Sequence record: PZ171032.1
Source of the DNA: a phage
DNA length: 64,000 nucleotides
Strand: one strand, 5' to 3'
Below, piece by piece: positions 5,628 to 15,883 of the stretch. Positions within the stretch are counted from its first letter, which is position 1; each line of letters starts with the position of its first letter. The notes beneath the pieces were generated by a model. It saw nothing but the letters and a program-made list of their open reading frames with translations. It did no database searches and had not been told where the DNA came from. The translations under genes and the position numbers were made by a program.

Positions 5628-7610
5628 TTATTTGATGTTATTCTTTGTATCGATCAGTTCACGGTATTCAATCATAGCAGGAGTGTCCCAATATTTCAAG
5701 CCCACATGCTTCAAAAGTGGATATTTCTTTTCCAATCTTGCAATATAGGCCTTTCCGCACTTAACCCGGTTGGCGATTAAGATTTTGGCACGATGATTTA
5801 GCTCACTGTGCTTCCACGCGGTGTTACCTTCCCACTTGTGGAAATGTGGCCGATAATTTCCAAAATCCTGCATGGGGATAATTTTCCCTAATTGTCTATA
5901 CAGGCTGTCATATGAAGTTTCATTTGCTGCGCGAGTCAGTAAGAATTTCCAGGCGTCCTCTTTCAACAAATGTTCCACATTTTTCTCTGTAACATACTGG
6001 CAATCAGGATCAGTCCAAAGCAGACGGGATTCTGATACCAGGTACAGGTCTTCCCCTTCAGGAATCTGGAGTGCCGCACGCACACGGTCATAATTTTGCT
6101 GGTAGATGTTACTCAGCTGTCCCAGCCAACAACTTCCACGTTGGATATCGCCCTCATAAGGAATGCAGTGCTTAATCTTCTTGAACTCTGCCTTAGTAAT
6201 ACGTTCACGACGGAAGTAACCATCCTTCTCAAGCTTTTTAACCCAATAACCTGGCTCGTAATGAGTTTTTGTTTCACCTTTCTTCGCAGGTCGGCGAGGG
6301 AGCTCTGATAACAATTTGACCGTATCTGCAAAGAACGGGTGGTGTGCCGCTTCTTTAAACTCTTCCACCAAATCCGTGTTACGGCAATAGAAAACGTTGC
6401 GTCCGGTGATCTCGCTTAAGTAGTTACACTTATTTCGGTTATATTTGCCGTCTCCGTCGTTAAACACTAAGTAGACCCCTCGTAAGAACTCCGACTTTCC
6501 GTAGCAGGCGTAACCTATGCGGCCTTTATTTAAGCCGCCAGCGAAGATCTCACAATCTCCCAAACTTCCTAGTCCTGTCTCTTCCCATCGGTCCCACATA
6601 AAATTCTTACCGAAGATGTGCCCGAACACTCCACTGTTCTTCATCATCTCACGTGCTTCTGAGGATGTTTTTGCTGTCTCCAATTCCGCAACAACTTCTG
6701 CCCCACGAAGACGGATACCCTCTTTGACAAAAGCCTCCAACCGCTCTTGGAATCCACCATCGTCGTGCCCCTCTATGGTCCATTCGCGCCCAGGGTTAAT
6801 ATTGCAATCCCCAATAGGGATCTCTACACAGATTGCAGGGTAGTCTGTCAATGTTTCCAGAAACTTAGAGCGGTAAGGTTGGTGTCCCATCACCACACGG
6901 CTCTCATCAGAGCTGGTATAACCTTTCAGGATAGTCATTTTCCAACCATCTTTCTCGTAGCGATACTGCGCCTCAACCTTGTCACCTTCCAGCATCTTAC
7001 TGGTCATAGGGTCGGTAACGGTAAACGGAAACTTTGCATAGCGTAGGCATGACGCAATAGCAGTGCGATATTTCAGAATATGCTCTTTCTTAACATGGAA
7101 CTGAACTTTTACCCCGTTGTGCTCTTCAGTCTTTCGCTCGCGGATCTTGGTAACGTTTGGGATACCCTGATCCAAGAACAATAGATATGTGCTTTCAACA
7201 CCATTGTGTACACTGATCACATCGAAAGTGTCCACCATGCTGAACGGGGCCTTTGAACCAACACCTTTATTACCCACCAGAGCGTTGCTGTTGCGCTTGG
7301 TTGACTCTCCGAGGTTCATGAAAGTGTTGCGGACCATCTCTTCTGACATGCCTAATCCAACGTCCTGCACAAAGAAGTATGGTTCAAGGTCTGTAGGAGA
7401 GTGAATGATGATCGGTACATCGCCCCGTCCAGACTCAACATGAGAGTCCACAGCATTGAAGATTGGTTCACGGCAGCTTGCCAGCACCTTATCTTCGTAA
7501 ATCCCTTTAATGATTAGCCCAAAAGTCTCTTTGTTCAGAGAAATTGAGCCCCTGGTGACCTCCATATTTCCAGTTAGCACTGCTTTAGTTTCATTACTGT
7601 TTACAATCAT
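5628..7610 (-). CDS. GHKL-superfamily ATPase, Hsp90-like N-terminal domain, with a large uncharacterised C-terminal region
   Basis: N-box 'EPIFNAVDS', G1 box 'QDVGLGMS', Hsp90-like 'NLGESTKRNS' and G2 box 'GNKGVGSKAPF' within the first ~130 aa; the remaining ~500 aa match nothing I recognise. Confidence 0.6.
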   Translation of the reverse strand: MIVNSNETKAVLTGNMEVTRGSISLNKETFGLIIKGIYEDKVLASCREPIFNAVDSHVESGRGDVPIIIHSPTDLEPYFFVQDVGLGMSEEMVRNTFMNLGESTKRNSNALVGNKGVGSKAPFSMVDTFDVISVHNGVESTYLLFLDQGIPNVTKIRERKTEEHNGVKVQFHVKKEHILKYRTAIASCLRYAKFPFTVTDPMTSKMLEGDKVEAQYRYEKDGWKMTILKGYTSSDESRVVMGHQPYRSKFLETLTDYPAICVEIPIGDCNINPGREWTIEGHDDGGFQERLEAFVKEGIRLRGAEVVAELETAKTSSEAREMMKNSGVFGHIFGKNFMWDRWEETGLGSLGDCEIFAGGLNKGRIGYACYGKSEFLRGVYLVFNDGDGKYNRNKCNYLSEITGRNVFYCRNTDLVEEFKEAAHHPFFADTVKLLSELPRRPAKKGETKTHYEPGYWVKKLEKDGYFRRERITKAEFKKIKHCIPYEGDIQRGSCWLGQLSNIYQQNYDRVRAALQIPEGEDLYLVSESRLLWTDPDCQYVTEKNVEHLLKEDAWKFLLTRAANETSYDSLYRQLGKIIPMQDFGNYRPHFHKWEGNTAWKHSELNHRAKILIANRVKCGKAYIARLEKKYPLLKHVGLKYWDTPAMIEYRELIDTKNNIK

Positions 7611-8107
7611 TTATTGCGCTCCTTGTAGTAGATATGACTCCCGAATTGAGCTGTCCTCTGCATCTTTTTTGCCCATTTCGGTCGTACTTTGGTCGTATGG
7701 TAGTGTGTTGCTCCACCTGTTATATCCATAGCCATGTATGCAACATGGTTGTTATTATAGACCTTTAGAAGCATCTTTGCAAGACTTTTAGCGTGATCCC
7801 ATGAATCTTTTTCTGTCACCTTAAAAGTTTTGCCGTAGTTTGTCCACGAAAACTGATTAGGTTGGTAGACAATCTTTCTTATAGTGTCCGGGTATTTGGG
7901 ATGAGATTTCCTGTTTAGGGTGGCAAACCCAGATGCCAGCATACCCATCGTGCCATCCCCTCTAGCTTCCCTGTAGATATTGCATGCTAGAATGTTTTCC
8001 TTAGTATCTGATGGCTTGCAAGTATGGTATACTTTTTGTTTTGGTGCTGCAACAACAGGCAGCGATAAAAATGCGCTCAAAATAATAGCAAAGATCTTAA
8101 TTTTCAC
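7607..8107 (-). CDS. secreted cell-wall hydrolase, SleB-type (Hydrolase_2 family); candidate endolysin
   Basis: N-terminal signal peptide 'MKIKIFAIILSAFLSLPVVAAP'; 'NIYREARGD...LNRKSHPKYPDTIRKIVYQPNQFSW' matches the SleB consensus (IYxEARGE...LNR...P.FP.TI..V..Q..QF). Confidence 0.7.
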   Translation of the reverse strand: MKIKIFAIILSAFLSLPVVAAPKQKVYHTCKPSDTKENILACNIYREARGDGTMGMLASGFATLNRKSHPKYPDTIRKIVYQPNQFSWTNYGKTFKVTEKDSWDHAKSLAKMLLKVYNNNHVAYMAMDITGGATHYHTTKVRPKWAKKMQRTAQFGSHIYYKERNK

Positions 8108-8127
8108 AATGACTCCAAATAGAAAAT

Positions 8128-8143
8128 CCCCGCCGAAGCGGGG
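8128..8143 (-). terminator. rho-independent terminator after the 8157..8537 gene
   Basis: ccccgc-cgaa-gcgggg hairpin followed on the minus strand by ATTTTCTATTT; the same hairpin sequence recurs at 34562 and in near-identical form at 40373. Confidence 0.6.
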
Positions 8144-8156
8144 GAGGTCTTAGAAA

Positions 8157-8537
8157 TTAATCGTAGTGTGCCAAAATCTCTCCATCGTTGCAAGTTCCCT
8201 CTACAAAGTTATGAAGATTCATGCACTCATCTTGATAGAAGAATTTACCGCTTTTCAGCCGTAGGCCAAACAACTCCGCATCTCCACGATGGCAAGCCTC
8301 TACAAGTTCATAGATTTCATACGGCAACTCTCCGTCGTCATGGAAGAATCCAGCCTTATCGTTGACATAAATGAAGAAATAATCACTGCTATCGCAAGCG
8401 TCCAATATTTTAAACCAGATTTCATCTACATCTTTTTCTCGGATATCGATCACGCAAGTGGAGCTGCATTCGTACTCCTTCTCCGGCTCCTCGGTCAATA
8501 CCACCAGGTAGTTTCCCCGCTTACCTACTTTAGCCAT
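8157..8537 (-). CDS. hypothetical protein
   Basis: 126-aa ORF, acidic and Cys/His-containing; no family recognised. Confidence 0.55.
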   Translation of the reverse strand: MAKVGKRGNYLVVLTEEPEKEYECSSTCVIDIREKDVDEIWFKILDACDSSDYFFIYVNDKAGFFHDDGELPYEIYELVEACHRGDAELFGLRLKSGKFFYQDECMNLHNFVEGTCNDGEILAHYD

Positions 8538-8546
8538 ACAACCCCC

Positions 8547-9731
8547 TTAAGCTTTAGCCAAAATGGCGCTAAACTCTTCACCAAACTCTTTTACAATCTT
8601 CATCAGGTTTGGGTATGCTTTGATCAACTGAGCAACAATCTTGTCACGCCCTTTACCGATAAGCAAGGCATTTCCTAAGGCGTTAGGTTTCATCATCGCC
8701 ATAAAGACTGAGAATACAAAATCTCGGTTCTCGTCCTTGAAATTTTCCCAAAGGAAATCGAGGAAGTTTGCCACACAGCTAACAAGATCTTCGTCGGAGA
8801 TACTTGCATTTTCCATCATATTGCGAATAGCGATACAACCTTCAGATCCAAGAATCCACAAAATGTCTGGCTGCTTAGGACCTACGTATTCTTTGCAGCC
8901 ACCTGCCATAATCCGACCGATTTCCGGTAAATTACGTTTCTTGGTGTGGTAAGTCCAGATCTCTACCGCTGCAGTGTGACCAATAGCACCTTGTAGAAGA
9001 ACACGGGCCATAGCGTCAGAAATAATACCGCTGTCAAAATCGTGCAAGATGTCAGATGCAGCAACCCAAGATCGCGGTGTGGCAAAAGATGGACAATTAA
9101 TCTCAGCCATAGCCTCATAATTATCAATAGCTGAGGGAACTCTTTTCAAATATCCAATTACAGAGGAATGCACCCCATTAAGGAATGCGTAGTCCTCAAT
9201 AAACACCTCTGCATTGCTTGTAACCTCTACAATGATAAAACGGTTAGCCAGAGGGGCTTCGAGCGCCGAAAGAACCGCACCATCTGTAGAACGGTTACCC
9301 GCAGCCACAAAAACAGAACCCTTAGGGAATGCATAGGTGCCGCACTTGTGGTCAAGCATAATTTGCATTGCAACCTTTTGCAGGTAGTTATCTGCATGAG
9401 TGAGCTCATCCAGAAAGATAATTCCGCTCCAGTCAGGATCCGCAGGCCAAAATTCTGGAATTGCAAACACTGTACGTGTAGTTCCATCCGCTTCTACAGG
9501 GATAGGTAGCCCAGATAAGTCGGCAGGATCTTTATCTGACAGTCGCACGTCAACAAGGTTGTCATCTCGCTCACCGAACATATTATCAGCGATCTGCTTC
9601 ATCACCTGGCTTTTACCCACACCCATTGGTCCCAAAATTAGGACAGATCGGCTATGACGTTGGGCAAACTGAATAATAGCTGGCAACTCACGGACAGTGA
9701 TTTGACCACTTTCGAATACGTTTCTTGACAT
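8547..9731 (-). CDS. AAA+ ATPase, MoxR/CbbQ-like
   Basis: Walker A 'LGPMGVGKSQ', Walker B 'IIFLDELTHAD'; size and layout typical of MoxR-type ATPases that partner with VWA proteins. Confidence 0.78.
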   Translation of the reverse strand: MSRNVFESGQITVRELPAIIQFAQRHSRSVLILGPMGVGKSQVMKQIADNMFGERDDNLVDVRLSDKDPADLSGLPIPVEADGTTRTVFAIPEFWPADPDWSGIIFLDELTHADNYLQKVAMQIMLDHKCGTYAFPKGSVFVAAGNRSTDGAVLSALEAPLANRFIIVEVTSNAEVFIEDYAFLNGVHSSVIGYLKRVPSAIDNYEAMAEINCPSFATPRSWVAASDILHDFDSGIISDAMARVLLQGAIGHTAAVEIWTYHTKKRNLPEIGRIMAGGCKEYVGPKQPDILWILGSEGCIAIRNMMENASISDEDLVSCVANFLDFLWENFKDENRDFVFSVFMAMMKPNALGNALLIGKGRDKIVAQLIKAYPNLMKIVKEFGEEFSAILAKA

Positions 9732-10000
9732 TAGTAAAAGTCCTCTACTTGTGTGTAAGTGTTTTCAAAGTTTTCCAAAACAGATATCACATCGAATCTG
9801 TCAATATCATACGTGACTCTCCAGTTGTACGCAACCCTTTCTGCTGTTGCCTCTTCTGGCGCTAGTCGTCTGCTGGCATAAAAGAGTGTTGGAGTACACT
9901 TTCTTGCTTGCCCTCTAACTTTCCCATAATAATATCTGTGAATATCTTTGTCAAAATTTAACTCTTTTTCTGCACGAAGTTCATATTGCTGGTATAACAT
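9731..10000 (-). CDS. hypothetical protein
   Basis: 89-aa ORF; stop overlaps the MoxR start (translational coupling). Confidence 0.5.
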   Translation of the reverse strand: MLYQQYELRAEKELNFDKDIHRYYYGKVRGQARKCTPTLFYASRRLAPEEATAERVAYNWRVTYDIDRFDVISVLENFENTYTQVEDFY

Positions 10001-10044
10001 CTCTACTACTCCTTAAGCAGCATCCTTGCCGCCATTCCTGCCCA

Positions 10045-10425
10045 CTAAAATGCAGTCCGAATCCAGACAAGGTTCTTATCTGCCCAATCATAGAGGCAAG
10101 TCATTGCACTATTGAATTGCTCACACGGAGGATAATCTTCTTCCATCTGGCGCATAGCAGAGCCTTGTGGGTAAAGCTCCCGTGCTGCAAACCACGCGTC
10201 GTAGTCATCAACGGTGTCGAAGTAGTATACAACATCCTCTAACTCAGGATCGAACTTTGAACTATCAGGATCCAGTTGTTCAGGGAACTTGGAGCGTAAC
10301 TTGCCAGCTACAATACTTGCCAACTCGCTAACATGCTTATTGTCCCACTCCACTAGCTTCCCGTCTTCAGTGATGCGTCCTAACCACTGATCATGAAGGT
10401 CAACTGTTGTCTTCCACTGGGCCAT
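10045..10425 (-). CDS. hypothetical protein
   Basis: 126-aa ORF with AAGGAG Shine-Dalgarno downstream for the next gene. Confidence 0.55.
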   Translation of the reverse strand: MAQWKTTVDLHDQWLGRITEDGKLVEWDNKHVSELASIVAGKLRSKFPEQLDPDSSKFDPELEDVVYYFDTVDDYDAWFAARELYPQGSAMRQMEEDYPPCEQFNSAMTCLYDWADKNLVWIRTAF

Positions 10426-10427
10426 TA

Positions 10428-10685
10428 TCAGTCCACCTCTTCTTCTCGTTGTAGTTCAAGATACCCGTAGGTCTGGACATCTTCAAGGGTGTGGAACTCC
10501 CCATCTGCCGCTAATGCACGAACAACTTGGCACAAAACCTTATGAGGAACTTCATCCAGACCAAGATTCAGTGCAGGGAACACCTTATCTAAGTCAACAA
10601 AATAAATGAACTGTAGCTCACCAGCTTCAAAAGGTGTATCTTCAATAAACATCTTCTCGGCATTAGTCAAGATCTGCACTTTCAT
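10428..10685 (-). CDS. hypothetical protein
   Basis: 85-aa acidic ORF. Confidence 0.5.
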   Translation of the reverse strand: MKVQILTNAEKMFIEDTPFEAGELQFIYFVDLDKVFPALNLGLDEVPHKVLCQVVRALAADGEFHTLEDVQTYGYLELQREEEVD

Positions 10686-11041
10686 TATTCTACCTCCTCT
10701 TCTTTTTCTTCGGCATTAGTTTCATGGCTACCCCACTCCGGAGTTTCCACCTCGATAGTAAACTCACGCACTACACGGTAATTGCCCATGAAGCGCTCTA
10801 CTTCGTCAAGGCTTATGGAGAGGCCATTGGCAACCAGGTCTGCAGCACCCTCTTCTACCAGGTAGTCCAGATTGGCTTCCAGAGCCTCAGGTTCAAACCC
10901 TGTCAATGCAATCAGATAACCTTCCCCTTCATCAGGGAGGACAATACAGCCCAATTGATTTTCTTTAAAAAGGCAGTGACCATCATTATTGATTGGGTGT
11001 TCATTGCAGTAAATAGCTGCACGATAAGTAACTTTAGACAT
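10685..11041 (-). CDS. hypothetical protein; start re-assigned to the ATG of MSKVTYRA
   Basis: The ORF-track start at 11062 has no ribosome-binding site; the ATG at 11039-11041 is preceded by AAGGAGA at 8-nt spacing; the first 8 codons lie inside the 29-bp inverted repeat. Confidence 0.55.
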   Translation of the reverse strand: MSKVTYRAAIYCNEHPINNDGHCLFKENQLGCIVLPDEGEGYLIALTGFEPEALEANLDYLVEEGAADLVANGLSISLDEVERFMGNYRVVREFTIEVETPEWGSHETNAEEKEEEVE

Positions 11042-11046
11042 CGGTA
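11018..11046. repeat. 29-bp perfect inverted repeat, copy A
   Basis: tgcacgataagtaactttagacatcggta is the exact reverse complement of 12880..12908. Confidence 0.85.
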
Positions 11047-11054
11047 AGGTCTCC

Positions 11055-11333
11055 TTAGGCAATTGTCATTTTACATTCTTGAAATTTTAACACAAGACGG
11101 TGATTGTGTCTAGTGTCTAAAAAGATTTTTTCAACCATCAGGCACACGGTATAACCGTCCATCTTGTTGACAACAAAATCTCCAGGATGAGGGAGGATGT
11201 CTCCCGGATTGGGGAAACATAGTCCACTCAGAAAGGCATCGTCAGTGGTGGACTTAATAGATTTCCACACACTGTCTGCCTGAACATGTTCACCGACGTA
11301 ATATACATTACCACATGCCTTCATCATAGTCAA
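11055..11333 (-). CDS. hypothetical protein
   Basis: 92-aa ORF; start overlaps the upstream stop. Confidence 0.5.
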   Translation of the reverse strand: MTMMKACGNVYYVGEHVQADSVWKSIKSTTDDAFLSGLCFPNPGDILPHPGDFVVNKMDGYTVCLMVEKIFLDTRHNHRLVLKFQECKMTIA

Positions 11334-12229
11334 ACCCTCGCATAAATTAAACTTGTATCAGTATACTTCTTTAATGGGTAAATATCCTGTCCATAGATGC
11401 AATCATTAAACACCTCATCTACCCAAAGGCTACACTTATATCCCATCATTTCTAAAACACCCATCTCTTCTTCGGTAAACTTATCACCGCTCTTGCAAGA
11501 TGTCAATACCTCATTCTGAACTCTTGCTACCTCGAAGCGGTTATTGGCAATATCGCTATTGGCGATCAAATACTCACCTAGAGGGTGTGCGGCATTAAAG
11601 ATGCACAGTGGACGGCTGACGTAATAGTCTCCGGGTGTATAAAAATTGTTGAGGTCTTTCACTAGAACATTCTTATCAGTCACTTCATTTATAACATCAT
11701 GCATATCGCACATCTTTATATGTTTGAGGATTCCATCCCCCATCACAAAATAAAAACTTGCTGAGACACTTTCGGCATAGATCTTACTAGATCCGTTGTA
11801 GTTGTATTTTACTCGGATGCTAACGGGGGTTTTTCCTGTCGCGTTAGCCATCATCCAAAGAAATGGCAGCTCATACTTCTCCTCTGAGGAAACAAAAGGT
11901 GAGGTAGCCAGAGATCGAAAACCTCCAGAGAAGTTGAAAGTTACAGAACCGCTCCGGCGGTATGATACCGCGTATTCTACTTTTATATCGACATACCCAT
12001 TGGAATAGGTGTGTCCTTCATTATCTAAATATGTCCACTTATCAGACCCAGATACCAATCTACGCTCAATAACCTTCATCACTATAGGAATTAATGGGTT
12101 GGTACAAACCGCTTTTGAAGTAGCTTTATCATCTAAAGCCTCGTAAATTGCAGAAAGGATGTCCCCAGCTGAAAGATTGGTTGTTATGTCCTGTTTCCAC
12201 CGCGTACTAAAACTGTTAAGATTTGCCAT
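11330..12229 (-). CDS. hypothetical protein, first gene of the minus-strand early unit
   Basis: 299-aa ORF; AGGAG Shine-Dalgarno 9 nt upstream; sits directly downstream of a sigma70-like promoter. Confidence 0.6.
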   Translation of the reverse strand: MANLNSFSTRWKQDITTNLSAGDILSAIYEALDDKATSKAVCTNPLIPIVMKVIERRLVSGSDKWTYLDNEGHTYSNGYVDIKVEYAVSYRRSGSVTFNFSGGFRSLATSPFVSSEEKYELPFLWMMANATGKTPVSIRVKYNYNGSSKIYAESVSASFYFVMGDGILKHIKMCDMHDVINEVTDKNVLVKDLNNFYTPGDYYVSRPLCIFNAAHPLGEYLIANSDIANNRFEVARVQNEVLTSCKSGDKFTEEEMGVLEMMGYKCSLWVDEVFNDCIYGQDIYPLKKYTDTSLIYARV

Positions 12230-12269
12230 AAGTAAGTGCTCCTATGTTAGTTTTCTTTCGAATGGGTGC

Positions 12270-12298
12270 ACTATATTGTGGAGTTAGAGTAAAGTCAA
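12270..12298 (-). promoter_or_regulatory. sigma70-like promoter for the minus-strand early unit
   Basis: On the minus strand: -35 TTGACT (reverse complement of 12293-12298), 17-bp spacer, -10 TATAGT (reverse complement of 12270-12275). Confidence 0.55.
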
Positions 12299-12311
12299 CA
12301 CGTTTTTGATG

Positions 12312-12340
12312 TTGACATCTGTTGAGACAATTGATACGAT
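12312..12340 (+). promoter_or_regulatory. sigma70-like promoter for the plus-strand unit
   Basis: -35 TTGACA at 12312-12317, 17-bp spacer, -10 TACGAT at 12335-12340; its -35 box forms an inverted repeat with the -35 of the divergent promoter. Confidence 0.4.
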
Positions 12341-12371
12341 TTCTTCACTTACAGAGCACGAGAGACGACTC

Positions 12372-13349
12372 ATGAATCTTGAAAAATATTATACACCAGA
12401 AGAGTTAGAGCGCTTGCTCAAAAAATATAGACGCAAACAGAATAACGCACGGAAACGAGATATAGAGTTCGACCTGTCATGGGAAGAATACCTCCTATTT
12501 GGTAAAAAACTTTTAGGAGATGGAGTATGCGACTATACCCTTATACCTTTTGACATGCACACAGATGAAAACGGGCTGGGGAATCCTTTCTACCCATCTC
12601 TGGAGCGGATAGATGATGAAGGTCCTTATGCGGTTGATAACTGTTGTGTGGTGGGATTGAGATGCAACTCTCTAAAGGACTGTCTGGTAGATAAAAAGAC
12701 TGCAGTCTTGATTAAAGACGAAACTGATCGAAAAATTGTCCAGCAGATGATGCTCCACCTGAGCGAAGAGCGTATGGAGAAATTGAAAGGTGATTATACT
12801 TTTGAAGATTTCATCTTGCAATATGGAACGGAAGAGGATAAACTAGCACTCTTTGACGAAGAAGAGGAGGAAGATATGCTACCGATGTCTAAAGTTACTT
12901 ATCGTGCACCCAAGAAGCACATTTCCGACATTGTAAACGAGCCTATCACAGAAGAGATTGAAGAAATGACGCAACAGGTGCATGAAGAGGAAAAAGAGAC
13001 TCAGGAGGTCGAAGAGGAGATTACAGAAGAGGTTCCTGCACTACCTGATGATGTTGAGATTGCCAAAGCTTACACTTTCTATTGTCAAACGTTCTACGAT
13101 GTAGGTATGAAAGTTGATCTGTCGTTCAGCCAATTTAAGAGTTCGTATATTCGCAAATGCTGTGCTTTAACTGGTGAACGTCTTGGAGCTGGACTTAAAC
13201 CCCTGTTGGTGACCGACTGGAATAAAGGTTTCACTAAAGGAAACTTTATGGTAGTATCTCCAATTATGGAGAAAGCTATGACAGATCTTATGAAGACCAC
13301 CCGCATGACAATGACCGAGTTGGCAGGTATTTTCAAACACGTTAAATAA
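12372..13349 (+). CDS. hypothetical protein with acidic linker; possibly two fused modules
   Basis: The ORF-track TTG start at 12306 lies upstream of the promoter -35; the first ATG after the promoter is 12372 (MNLEKYY); an internal 'MSKVTYRA' at 12884 lies within the 29-bp inverted repeat and is preceded by GAGGAGG. Confidence 0.55.
   Translation: MNLEKYYTPEELERLLKKYRRKQNNARKRDIEFDLSWEEYLLFGKKLLGDGVCDYTLIPFDMHTDENGLGNPFYPSLERIDDEGPYAVDNCCVVGLRCNSLKDCLVDKKTAVLIKDETDRKIVQQMMLHLSEERMEKLKGDYTFEDFILQYGTEEDKLALFDEEEEEDMLPMSKVTYRAPKKHISDIVNEPITEEIEEMTQQVHEEEKETQEVEEEITEEVPALPDDVEIAKAYTFYCQTFYDVGMKVDLSFSQFKSSYIRKCCALTGERLGAGLKPLLVTDWNKGFTKGNFMVVSPIMEKAMTDLMKTTRMTMTELAGIFKHVK
12880..12908. repeat. 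29-bp perfect inverted repeat, copy B
   Basis: taccgatgtctaaagttacttatcgtgca is the exact reverse complement of 11018..11046. Confidence 0.85.
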
Positions 13350-13361
13350 TGACAGGGGCCA

Positions 13362-14843
13362 ATGGCCCCTTCTGGAGTTTTAATGGATAGCAGAAGTTCA
13401 GAAATCATTGCCTCGCAGAAAGATGATGCCCTGAGAATGTTGCAGGCTGCACGTATGTATCTCCTTGAAAAGCTGCCGTTTTATGGCACACTACTGTCAG
13501 GGTTGCAGTTCGTAGAAAACCACACATGGTGCTCCACCATGGCAACCGACCATAAACGCATCTATTACAGTCCTGAGTTCATTATGGGATTGGCTGATGA
13601 GCGCAAGGCTATTCTTAAGGCTTCTCTAACTGACGAGCAGTTTGAGATGGCTGAAGTTTTCTATTCCCCAAAATCTGTGAAAGAGGTGGCCTTCCTTCTG
13701 TCACATGAGGTGGGGCATATTATCTGTGATCATCTAGTCCGTGGTAAAAGCTTTGAGCCGGAACTGTTCAATATTGCTTGTGATCACGTTATCAACACAG
13801 GCCTTGTGGTTGACTTTAGCAAACCTCCTTGTGTTTTCTTCCCGAAGGGGAAAAGCACTACGTTCATGAAAGGTAAGCCTTTTGGCTTCTTAGCCAGCTG
13901 CTACTGTGACATGAGGTTTCATGGATGGATTGCTGAGAACGTTTATGCAGTTCTTGATAAGCAAAGAGATCAGAATAACGGTAAAAGTAAGAACGGTAAA
14001 GGTGAGAACTCTCAAAGTGATAAGCGACAAACCGATGATCACATGAGTGGGAACGGTGGCACCAGTGATAATCTTGGAAAGGCTATGGGGTATGATCAGC
14101 CACAACCTGTAATCAGCCAATCTGATAAAGATCAGGCCATGCAGGACTCTGGTGATATGCTGGAGGCAGCAATGCAAGCTTCCGGAGGTCGTTGCCCTGA
14201 GGCGGTGCGTGAGTTTGTCAAGAACAGGGGTAAGCCTGTAATCAACTATATAGACATCATTAAGCAACGCATGTTGTCTAAACGAAAGGCTGAACTGACC
14301 TACAGAAAACCTGGTCGCCGATCTGGGTCTTTGACCAGCACAATGCGAAAAGTTGGGGCTATAAACAAGAACCAGCACGTTATTGTTCCCGGTCGTAATC
14401 CGGAAAACACCATAGATATTGTTGTAGCTTTAGACGTTTCTGGCTCGATCTCTCAAAGAACTTTAAAGAAAATGTTCAATGAAATCACCGGATTGTGCAA
14501 TCTGTATAAAGAGTTTAAGGTTACAATGTTCTGTTGGTCAACTGAGGTTGGAGAGGTTAAAGTATACACTCGCGGTAACATAGATGAGATGATCAACTAT
14601 GAGGTCCACTCAACATGGGGCACAACAGCTGCTTGCGTGTTCGAGTATCTAGATGCCAACATACCAAATGCAAAAGATGTCATCGTATTGACCGACCTAT
14701 ACTTTGAGCATAACTTTGAACAAAAGGCTGTTGACAACAAGTGGAAAAAGTACGATACTTTATGGGTTCTCACCGAAGGGTATAATAAAAATTATATCCC
14801 TAGCTTTGGGAAAACTGTGGAATTAATCGAGTACGCTAAGTAA
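13362..14843 (+). CDS. metallopeptidase-like (HExxH) plus von Willebrand factor A domain protein (DUF2201-type layout)
   Basis: 'LLSHEVGHIICDH' zinc-binding-like motif in the N-terminal half; C-terminal VWA MIDAS motif 'VVALDVSGSIS'; this layout commonly partners with MoxR ATPases. Confidence 0.72.
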   Translation: MAPSGVLMDSRSSEIIASQKDDALRMLQAARMYLLEKLPFYGTLLSGLQFVENHTWCSTMATDHKRIYYSPEFIMGLADERKAILKASLTDEQFEMAEVFYSPKSVKEVAFLLSHEVGHIICDHLVRGKSFEPELFNIACDHVINTGLVVDFSKPPCVFFPKGKSTTFMKGKPFGFLASCYCDMRFHGWIAENVYAVLDKQRDQNNGKSKNGKGENSQSDKRQTDDHMSGNGGTSDNLGKAMGYDQPQPVISQSDKDQAMQDSGDMLEAAMQASGGRCPEAVREFVKNRGKPVINYIDIIKQRMLSKRKAELTYRKPGRRSGSLTSTMRKVGAINKNQHVIVPGRNPENTIDIVVALDVSGSISQRTLKKMFNEITGLCNLYKEFKVTMFCWSTEVGEVKVYTRGNIDEMINYEVHSTWGTTAACVFEYLDANIPNAKDVIVLTDLYFEHNFEQKAVDNKWKKYDTLWVLTEGYNKNYIPSFGKTVELIEYAK

Positions 14844-14858
14844 GAGAGGAGGTTATTT

Positions 14859-15122
14859 ATGGCAACAGAGTTAAAATTTGCATCAAACCGTAAAACTAAG
14901 AAGTATCTGTCCTCAGTAGCTCCAGGCACTGTGGTGATGTTTGTTGATGAACTTGGGGATGTGAATACAGCACTTGTTGTAAAATCACATCCTGCAAACA
15001 TATATGTTGGGGTATTTGACCTGTTCAGAAAGGTGTTTGTAGAACTGCCTCACAGTTTGGTTGTTACAGAAATGGATGCCTGCATAGAAATTCTTGGCGA
15101 AGTTATGGTGGAGGAACAATAA
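14859..15122 (+). CDS. small hypothetical protein, member 1 of a 4-gene tandem paralog array
   Basis: 87 aa; shares a G-T/E-VV...ELD.KI.ILGE pattern with the next three ORFs; GAGGAGG Shine-Dalgarno. Confidence 0.6.
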   Translation: MATELKFASNRKTKKYLSSVAPGTVVMFVDELGDVNTALVVKSHPANIYVGVFDLFRKVFVELPHSLVVTEMDACIEILGEVMVEEQ

Positions 15123-15385
15123 TGGCTACCAGCATTGTATTCAATTCTAAGGTGAAGAACAAAAAGCGTGCAGACAGTTTTCCGTGTGGGACCGTGGTAA
15201 GTTGCGACGGAGACGGCATTCAAAACATAGTTATGATTGTCAAAACAGGAGAACATTGTGTGTGGGGGTTCGATTTAGAAAATAATGAGTTGTACGATCT
15301 GCCGCCAAACATGAAAGTTACAGAGCTTGACACCAAAATTACCATCCTTGGAGAGACAAGCTATTCAAAAGAAGGAGGAGAATAA
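15122..15385 (+). CDS. small hypothetical protein, paralog 2
   Basis: 87 aa; start overlaps the preceding stop (TAATGG). Confidence 0.6.
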   Translation: MATSIVFNSKVKNKKRADSFPCGTVVSCDGDGIQNIVMIVKTGEHCVWGFDLENNELYDLPPNMKVTELDTKITILGETSYSKEGGE

Positions 15386-15648
15386 TGACCACAAAAATCA
15401 CTATCGCAGAACCGAAAGCTAACACTCAGCCTATCGAAAAGTTTAAGTGCGGTGAGGTGGTAACATTCACACCAGATAATGAAGATGCTAAGATTTTCGC
15501 AATGGTCACAGCTGAGTGGATGTGTGACAACACCACACAGGTTCTGCGTTTTGACACCTATCTTACCGATGAAATCAGGAACGACAAGATTGTGACTGGT
15601 GTGGATACTGAGATTGTTTTCTACAAGAGCTTTTTAGAGGGTTTCTGA
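15385..15648 (+). CDS. small hypothetical protein, paralog 3
   Basis: 87 aa; start overlaps the preceding stop (ATAATGA). Confidence 0.6.
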   Translation: MTTKITIAEPKANTQPIEKFKCGEVVTFTPDNEDAKIFAMVTAEWMCDNTTQVLRFDTYLTDEIRNDKIVTGVDTEIVFYKSFLEGF

Positions 15649-15649
15649 T

Positions 15650-15883
15650 ATGGCAAAAATTAGAAAATTATCTAGCAATCAGGTTGTGAAAGACTTCGAA
15701 TCTGGAGAGATTCTTTATGTTCGTGATGCAGATGACGAAGGTGAAGATCTCGTTATGTTGGTGGGGCACGCTGAGGACGGATGCATCCAAGCTGTTTTTC
15801 TTGAAACAGCTATGGTGCACTGGATAGAGCTGGACCTGAAAGCACGAAAACCTAAAGCAGAAATCCTGATTTACGAAGATTAA
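15650..15883 (+). CDS. small hypothetical protein, paralog 4 (more diverged)
   Basis: 77 aa; keeps the central Gly, acidic patch and hydrophobic C-terminal pattern. Confidence 0.55.
   Translation: MAKIRKLSSNQVVKDFESGEILYVRDADDEGEDLVMLVGHAEDGCIQAVFLETAMVHWIELDLKARKPKAEILIYED

Follow-up and report, generated by a model that had tools for sequence, protein, structure and literature searches.

In a 64,000-nucleotide stretch of phage DNA (sequence record PZ171032.1), referred to here as the window, the gene for a MoxR-class AAA+ ATPase and the gene for a protein that carries both an HExxH motif and a von Willebrand factor A (VWA) domain lie on opposite strands. This raises the question of whether the products of two such separated genes act together and, if so, how the genes came to be parted. 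The ATPase gene (8547..9731, minus strand, 394 amino acids) corresponds to gp4 of phage rV5; the partner gene, a member of the DUF2201 family (13383..14843, plus strand, 486 amino acids), corresponds to rV5 gp12. A sequence-only reading of the window had proposed that the two encode a chaperone-like system, expressed from one divergent promoter region and possibly including a GHKL ATPase encoded nearby. The interpretation favoured here, to which a probability of roughly 0.7 is attached, is that they form a two-gene MoxR/VWA module found mainly in phages, that the module was ancestrally an operon which an inversion has split, and that its products act in the manner of NorQD, with an HExxH domain.

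Gene order in other phages speaks to the partnership most directly. Eighty viral contigs with a relative of the ATPase were fetched and then searched with a profile of the partner, which is present in 70; nine others end just after the ATPase gene, and the remaining one is unresolved. In 68 of these 70 viral loci the ATPase gene is followed directly by the DUF2201 gene on the same strand, with about -58 to 548 bp between the frame-open stretches, so that the synteny comparison suggested with the sequence-only reading finds the two genes co-occurring. They are adjacent in A73, in the jumbo phages 121Q and Atu_ph07, in Aeromonas phage 4L372XY, in a 578-kb contig (L110; contigs of this survey are given by L numbers) and in a genome-assembly contig (L111); in the N4-like phage Pa2 one small gene separates them. 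The two exceptions to adjacency are the closest relatives (98% and 53% identity), in which the genes diverge as they do in the window. By tblastn at E<=1e-10 against 50,697 phage records, the ATPase was found in 748 and the partner in 462, including rV5-like and N4-like phages. A scan of genome contigs with the ATPase alignment gave 10 loci, all in metagenome-assembled genomes; because the search pattern was narrow, this does not show absence from cells, and the gene table in the rV5 paper (PMC3606486) lists cellular best hits.

The two proteins also diverge in step. Across 990 pairs drawn from 45 non-redundant loci, the identities of ATPase and partner correlate with a Pearson r of 0.96. Even where identity has fallen to about 22-25%, residues of catalytic type persist: at least 74 of 75 partner ORFs (open reading frames) keep them, as do at least 92 of 93 ATPase ORFs. 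Together with the adjacency, this bears out the functional partnership that had been proposed. It might be argued that the ATPase or the VWA protein took another partner or role once the genes were separated, as they now stand in separate transcription units 3.65 kb apart, and as one contig (L104, ATPase 59% identical) has no DUF2201 gene within 8 kb of the ATPase. Such independence appears very improbable: the split genomes, at 98/97, 52/46 and 50/47% identity for the pair of proteins, follow the same trend as the adjacent ones, every split genome examined has kept both genes with all motifs intact, and no further VWA gene was seen in the vicinity of the ATPase.

When ORFs within 5 kb of the pair were clustered across 47 non-redundant loci, only the ATPase and partner families were common to all. 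A conserved third component was sought among these loci and not found, and the module is therefore taken to have two genes. The inclusion of the GHKL ATPase fails because that gene (5628..7610) is rIIA, a name assigned by PHROG 612 (E=4.6e-125) and used both in deposited annotations and in the rV5 table; it is not among the families common to the 47 loci. PADLOC gave no meaningful match to a defence system.

Of the domain identities claimed from sequence, both the MoxR and the HExxH/VWA assignments stood, the former not on Pfam alone. In the Pfam scan of the window ATPase the AAA matches are sub-threshold: AAA_5 (PF07728) reaches 16.7 bits where the cut-off is 22, and AAA_3 (PF07726) is not among the matches listed. 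For this reason, homologues, a profile and a structure model were needed. Homologues were found at E ~1e-44, with 33-36% identity over about 80-85% of the query, and among 29 that were aligned AAA_5 is matched in 10 (best 2.4e-9), AAA_3 in 10 (best 1.2e-8) and bpMoxR in 5; since it is the homologues and not the window protein that pass Pfam, membership of the MoxR class by sequence is transitive only. Single-sequence searches of the PDB returned only the P-loop for the ATPase and nothing for the partner. The profile of the 29 sequences has the Midasin AAA as its best PDB match (6e-11). With the AlphaFold2 model of the ATPase (pLDDT 86.6), the top 15 Foldseek matches in the PDB are all NorQ or CbbQ (AfCbbQ2), at E ~2e-8 and with TM scores, normalised to the target, of 0.59-0.66; cso-CbbQ and the CHU_0153 ATPase are also among the matches listed, and several of the NorQ matches come from structures in which NorQ is bound to the VWA domain of NorD.

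The ATPase motifs are all in place, each kept in 92-93 of 93 family ORFs: Walker A (GPMGVGKS, 34-41; G34-x4-G39-K40-S41), Walker B (IIFLDE, 104-109; D108-E109), sensor 1 (N146), the arginine finger (R164) and sensor 2 (R220). AAA+ proteins of clade 7 are recognised by a helix-2 insert and a pre-sensor-1 beta-hairpin. In the AlphaFold2 model, read by its secondary structure and without superposition, residues 75-90 form a beta-hairpin that falls between beta2 and Walker B, and residues 129-134, ahead of beta4, form short strands. An extra helical domain occupies roughly residues 270-394 at the C-terminus. The gp4 protein is accepted as a divergent MoxR-class AAA+ ATPase with an additional C-terminal helical domain.

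The partner family, defined by Pfam PF13203 and PF09967 with their curated cut-offs, is recognised directly, and the Pfam check proposed for this gene places both domains of the window protein above those cut-offs: DUF2201_N at 98.1 bits (E=9e-28; cut-off 23.2) and the VWA-like DUF2201 at 43.8 bits (E=3.4e-11; cut-off 26.4). The N-terminal DUF2201_N domain contains H108-E109-x-x-H112 along with D116, H117, R120, N130, D134 and N138; the HExxH motif is invariant in 75 of 75 partner ORFs, as are H117 and D134. A disordered linker (about 200-229) follows, and the C-terminal VWA domain (~344-486) has a complete metal-ion-dependent adhesion site (MIDAS), formed by D351-x-S353-x-S355, T414 and D438. 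The closest solved folds for this VWA domain are those of NorD and BchD. From its motif and family, the N-terminal domain of gp12 is described here as zincin-like, a putative metallopeptidase.

The name 'HNH endonuclease', given to the DUF2201/VWA protein by PHROG 1314 and in many RefSeq records (for example those of L088, L090, L091 and L092), is a widespread mislabel. DUF2201 genes so labelled match the DUF2201 profile and carry HExxH and DxSxS, and a Pfam scan of the window DUF2201/VWA and Srd-like proteins matched no HNH family. PHROG 3118 likewise applies the label to the Srd-like protein encoded next to the partner.

How the two proteins might work together is suggested by known MoxR/VWA pairs. 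Structures of NorQD place a finger of the VWA protein in the AAA+ pore, and ATP hydrolysis remodels the adaptor for action on its client (PMC13036017). By analogy with NorQ/NorD and CbbQ/CbbO, a hexamer of gp4 would grip the VWA domain of gp12, whose MIDAS site would capture a client protein by an acidic residue. ATP hydrolysis could then remodel the partner or the client, after which the HExxH domain would either cleave the client or handle a metal for it.

Among cellular pairs, NorQD delivers iron into nitric oxide reductase, CbbQO is a Rubisco activase, and CobST is cited likewise. Such precedents lend weight to a different role for the phage pair, as a chaperone for metal-cofactor insertion or enzyme activation. 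It would bring a metalloenzyme of phage or host, for example ribonucleotide reductase, to maturity, with the HExxH site binding or delivering a metal instead of cleaving a peptide. Metal insertion or enzyme remodelling is typical of MoxR/VWA pairs (PMC13036017, PMC9976466), the closest solved folds of both phage proteins (NorQ and CbbQ; NorD and BchD) belong to this group, and genes of nucleotide metabolism are often found nearby, namely thymidylate synthase in L004-L006 and 121Q, thymidylate kinase in SSE121 and glutaredoxin in Atu_ph07. Against this, no specific metalloenzyme gene is conserved beside the pair in the 47 non-redundant loci, an invariant HExxH with its conserved glutamate is the signature of a hydrolytic zincin and not of a metallochaperone, and in all searches run the N-terminal domain of gp12 is unlike the N-terminal regions of NorD and CbbO. 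The metal-insertion reading is ranked third and is considered improbable.

The separation of the genes in the window is accounted for by a comparison of layouts. Over the 7 kb around the locus, identity is about 99% to Escherichia phages rV5_ev146, Murica and CM1 and, equally, to some 120 further rV5-like members of the genus Vequintavirus; Murica or rV5 positions are converted to window positions by adding 5626. Both ORFs were confirmed as originally described, the partner as 13362..14843 on the plus strand (493 amino acids), the true start of which is probably the ATG at 13383. That start is preferred because a GGAG ribosome-binding site (13374-13377) lies six bases upstream of it, because a GC-rich hairpin (13354-13370) contains the beginning of the longer ORF, and because all deposited annotations of the gene use the equivalent position. 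Measured to this start, the distance between the oppositely oriented genes is 3651 bp, with a strand switch in between, in agreement with the divergent layout of about 3.6 kb reported from sequence.

This split layout is shared by the window, L008, L108 and L107 (72% and 61% identity), L009 (53%), SSE121, 4MG, L105 (49%) and L109, and is confined to Vequintavirus, Seunavirus and Mydovirus-like relatives. L106 (42%), in which four small genes are inserted between ATPase and partner, L003, L007, A73, L010 and all more distant groups have the co-directional layout. On this outgroup comparison the adjacent layout, ATPase followed by partner in one operon, is ancestral and the split derived. Two flanking markers, a SleB-like hydrolase and a PIF1-like helicase, are shared by split and unsplit genomes and indicate what moved. 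The DUF2201 gene is on the strand opposite to these markers in every genome, whereas the ATPase gene is opposite to them in the unsplit genomes (L010 and L106) and on the same strand in the split ones (the window, L105, L108, L009 and L088). SleB, too, has changed neighbours: it adjoins the strand switch where the pair is unsplit and the ATPase block where it is split. A single inversion of the segment bounded by the strand switch on one side and by the end of the ATPase gene on the other accounts for all of this marker and strand pattern. It would have occurred in the common ancestor of the Vequintavirus, Seunavirus and Mydovirus-like phages, and from then on the bidirectional promoter region, of host (sigma70) type, would have had the ATPase gene in its leftward unit and the partner gene in its rightward one.

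A repeat near the locus was considered as a possible relic or driver of this event. This perfect 29-bp inverted repeat, of which zero copies are expected by chance, has arms at 11018-11046 and 12880-12908, one on either side of the divergent promoters. Each arm encodes, in frame, the peptide MSKVTYRA, which falls at the start of gp8 in one case and, after an acidic linker, in the middle of the Srd-like gene in the other; recombination between the arms would yield in-frame chimeras. The repeat is present in Murica and Gotham. It was rejected as a relic of the inversion, being absent from relatives at <=72% identity, and as a detectable active switch, the recombinant junction occurring in 0 of 119 rV5-like records. 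Elsewhere in the split group, L105 has an IS605 OrfB/TnpB-like gene (6081-7178) between the strand switch and the ATPase gene, and the PIF1-like helicase of L107 (1-1557) has an intein containing a LAGLIDADG domain.

The sequence-only reading had both genes driven from one promoter region, and here the picture is less clear. The strand-switch region (12230..12371, 142 bp) holds back-to-back sigma70-like promoters in a consensus scan: P010 (TTGACT-17-TATAGT, 12298..12270, minus strand) and P011 (TTGACA-17-TACGAT with an upstream TG, 12312..12340, plus strand), both predicted and both listed in rV5 Table S4. Bidirectional transcription from this point was proposed for rV5 in 2013 (PMC3606486). 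An equivalent strong promoter on the DUF2201 side (TTGACA-17-GATAAT, 11/12) is present in SSE121 and in a BIS47-like contig. On the leftward side, six minus-strand genes separate the switch from the ATPase gene, and the highest sigma70-like score in a scan of 7500-15500 falls on a candidate promoter within the gp5 ORF (TTGACA-17-TATTAT, 9954..9926, minus strand, 11/12 consensus match), 195 nt upstream of the ATPase gene. A weak terminator-like hairpin (10055-10068, minus strand) lies just before it. Promoter-like sites also occur directly upstream of the ATPase gene in L010 (11/12), A73 (10/12) and SSE121 (9/12). Given these consensus matches, in the window and in relatives, the ATPase may have its own promoter. 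Shared control of both genes by the predicted bidirectional promoter is thus plausible but unproven, because the stronger promoter-like site is the one just upstream of the ATPase.

On the rightward side a single gene lies between the switch and the partner. It is the plus-strand gp11 homologue (12372..13349; PHROG 3118, 4592 and 1400), an Srd-like, or anti-sigma decoy-like, gene that opens the unit between promoter and DUF2201 gene; rV5 gp11 is called an Srd homologue in PMC3606486. Homologues hold the equivalent position in L088, L009, L105 and L108, so that the gene is conserved beside the DUF2201 gene in split genomes, yet it is outside the module. The hairpin between the two genes (GGGGCC-AAT-GGCCCC, 13354..13370, plus strand), annotated as a terminator in Murica, may be an attenuator of read-through into the partner gene or an RNA-stability element. 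At the far end of the minus-strand unit, its ATPase-gp3 segment is closed by an intrinsic terminator, t003 of rV5 (8128..8143, minus strand), which appears in rV5 Table S4 and in the Murica and Gotham annotations. Directly downstream of the partner gene, at 14859-15883, are four tandem small genes (87, 87, 87 and 77 amino acids) that look paralogous, the first two being 39% identical (E=1e-12).

Promoter motifs and gene position make both genes look pre-late. The late genes of rV5 are 27-66, and its gene table gives neither gp4 nor gp12 a structural 'MS evidence' flag (PMC3606486); exact matches to the late-promoter motif reported for rV5 occur at 34-58 kb only. The CRISPRi-ART paper contains no data for these genes in EdH4, and what the O177 phage paper terms 'proteomics' is computational only. 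Because both genes are among the pre-late genes, a virion component is a less likely client than a protein of the host or a non-structural one of the phage. In L110 (592-7591), the megaphage-like contig of 578 kb, the pair is found among HSP20, ClpS and ClpP genes, a context that hints at protein quality control or proteolysis.

The timing also bears on the proposal that the pair is a chaperone or protease of virion assembly, which folds, assembles or processes structural proteins. This is the published suggestion for the homologous jumbo-phage proteins (PMC7824862). The pair directly follows three virion structural genes in 121Q, and in L104 (1-17194) the ATPase gene is preceded directly by tail genes of the same strand and followed by a real HNH gene. 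In the window, by contrast, the genes are in units with sigma70-type promoters beside rIIA/B and the Srd-like gene, far from the late block and with no late-promoter motif near them; their rV5 counterparts have no structural flag in the table, as noted above. The neighbours of the pair in N4-like Pa2 and in freshwater phage contigs are genes of replication or nucleotide metabolism, and no structural gene co-varies with the pair across the 47 non-redundant loci. Assembly is ranked second, on account of the pre-late context here and in N4-like phages, and is regarded as unlikely. A more novel reading, considered rather unlikely, is put forward tentatively: that the pair is a pre-late, ATP-driven device for capturing and cutting a specific host protein, such as a defence or proteostasis factor, and not an assembly chaperone. 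Here the MIDAS would seize the host protein, the MoxR hexamer would unfold or expose it, and the fused zincin domain would cleave it. If so, it would represent a widespread tool of host takeover or counter-defence, in at least 748 phage records spanning rV5-like, N4-like and jumbo phages.

Several considerations weigh against the reading of a split NorQD-like module with an HExxH domain. A physical interaction between gp4 and gp12 is suggested by analogy only. The window ATPase falls below the Pfam AAA_5 and AAA_3 cut-offs. None of the structural matches listed for the N-terminal domain of the partner is a solved peptidase, and the term 'peptidase' is therefore based on membership of the Pfam family and on the HExxH motif; two fold searches were uninformative on this domain because VWA matches filled the lists. 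In the partner model H108, H112 and H117 lie on one continuous helix and a third metal ligand is not identifiable. The small flanking genes of split and unsplit genomes have no detectable homology, so the inversion rests on two markers and strand logic, and its breakpoints are unmappable. Pre-late timing is judged from promoter motifs and gene position only. The published assembly proposal and the position of the pair in 121Q point elsewhere, and L104, with its unaccompanied ATPase, may reflect a further rearrangement, a loss or a chimeric assembly.

The split genomes amount to a natural experiment, in which translation of both genes from one mRNA proves unnecessary, and with E. coli K-12 as hosts they offer an easy system for single-gene knockouts. 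The discovery is a modest one because the annotation and the type of pair had already been published (PMC3606486; PMC7824862), which the sequence-only reading overlooked, as it did the status of the split as a derived exception. GenBank labels already read 'MoxR ATPase' and 'metallopeptidase, contains von Willebrand factor domain'. What is added here is the evidence for partnership across phage groups, the derived inversion, the doubt over a shared promoter, and the mislabel. Literature searches on MoxR with DUF2201, on COG3864, on MoxR in rV5 and on von Willebrand proteins in N4-like phages found nothing. The survey also turned up sixteen 'Campylobacter phage' records (host Campylobacter jejuni; for example MG065635.1, MG065666.1 and MG065677.1) that are about 99% identical to rV5-like coliphages, which suggests a mislabelled host or contamination.

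Among known systems, the closest are the orthologues in rV5 itself, where Kropinski et al. (2013) named gp4 'MoxR-ATPase' and gp12 'DUF2201_N'; the main-text passages and supplementary tables consulted (PMC3606486) contain no statement linking the two as partners. The window ATPase is 100% identical to that of the phage V5 record, and P010, P011 and t003 are the same elements in both phages. The rV5 record DQ832317 divides the partner gene into gp12 (441 amino acids) and gp13 (81 amino acids), whereas the gene is intact in the window and most relatives, and the division is therefore probably a frameshift error in the older sequence.

The same two protein families, with the same domain architecture, were described by Iyer et al. 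2021 (Viruses 13:63) as a MoxR-metallopeptidase-vWA pair of group 2.2 jumbo phages, exemplified by ASV44729.1 and ASV44728.2 of Agrobacterium phage Atu_ph07 (PMC7824862). The homology of these two coding sequences to the window proteins is evident by tblastn (1e-27 and 1e-25). The Atu_ph07 genes are adjacent and those of the window divergent and 3.65 kb apart, which is a derived order and not a different system. Unlike the jumbo phages, the window phage has a genome of 137 kb, its pair is among apparently pre-late genes, and its context does not favour the published role in virion assembly. The assembly analogy goes back to Acidianus two-tailed virus, in which a MoxR/VWA pair is needed for tail development (PMC7824862). 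Compared by its published description, this is likewise a viral MoxR and VWA pair, but it belongs to an archaeal virus and lacks the peptidase domain (PMC7824862). NorQ/NorD of Paracoccus denitrificans and Jhaorihella thermophila, and CbbQ/CbbO, also combine a motor with a MIDAS-bearing VWA adaptor; NorQ and CbbQ are the best structural matches of the phage ATPase, and the VWA domains share a fold. Sequence identity to these cellular pairs is 16-24%, and the phage proteins are set apart by the extra C-terminal helical domain of the ATPase (~120 residues) and by the HExxH N-terminal domain of the partner, a feature unreported in descriptions of NorD and CbbO.

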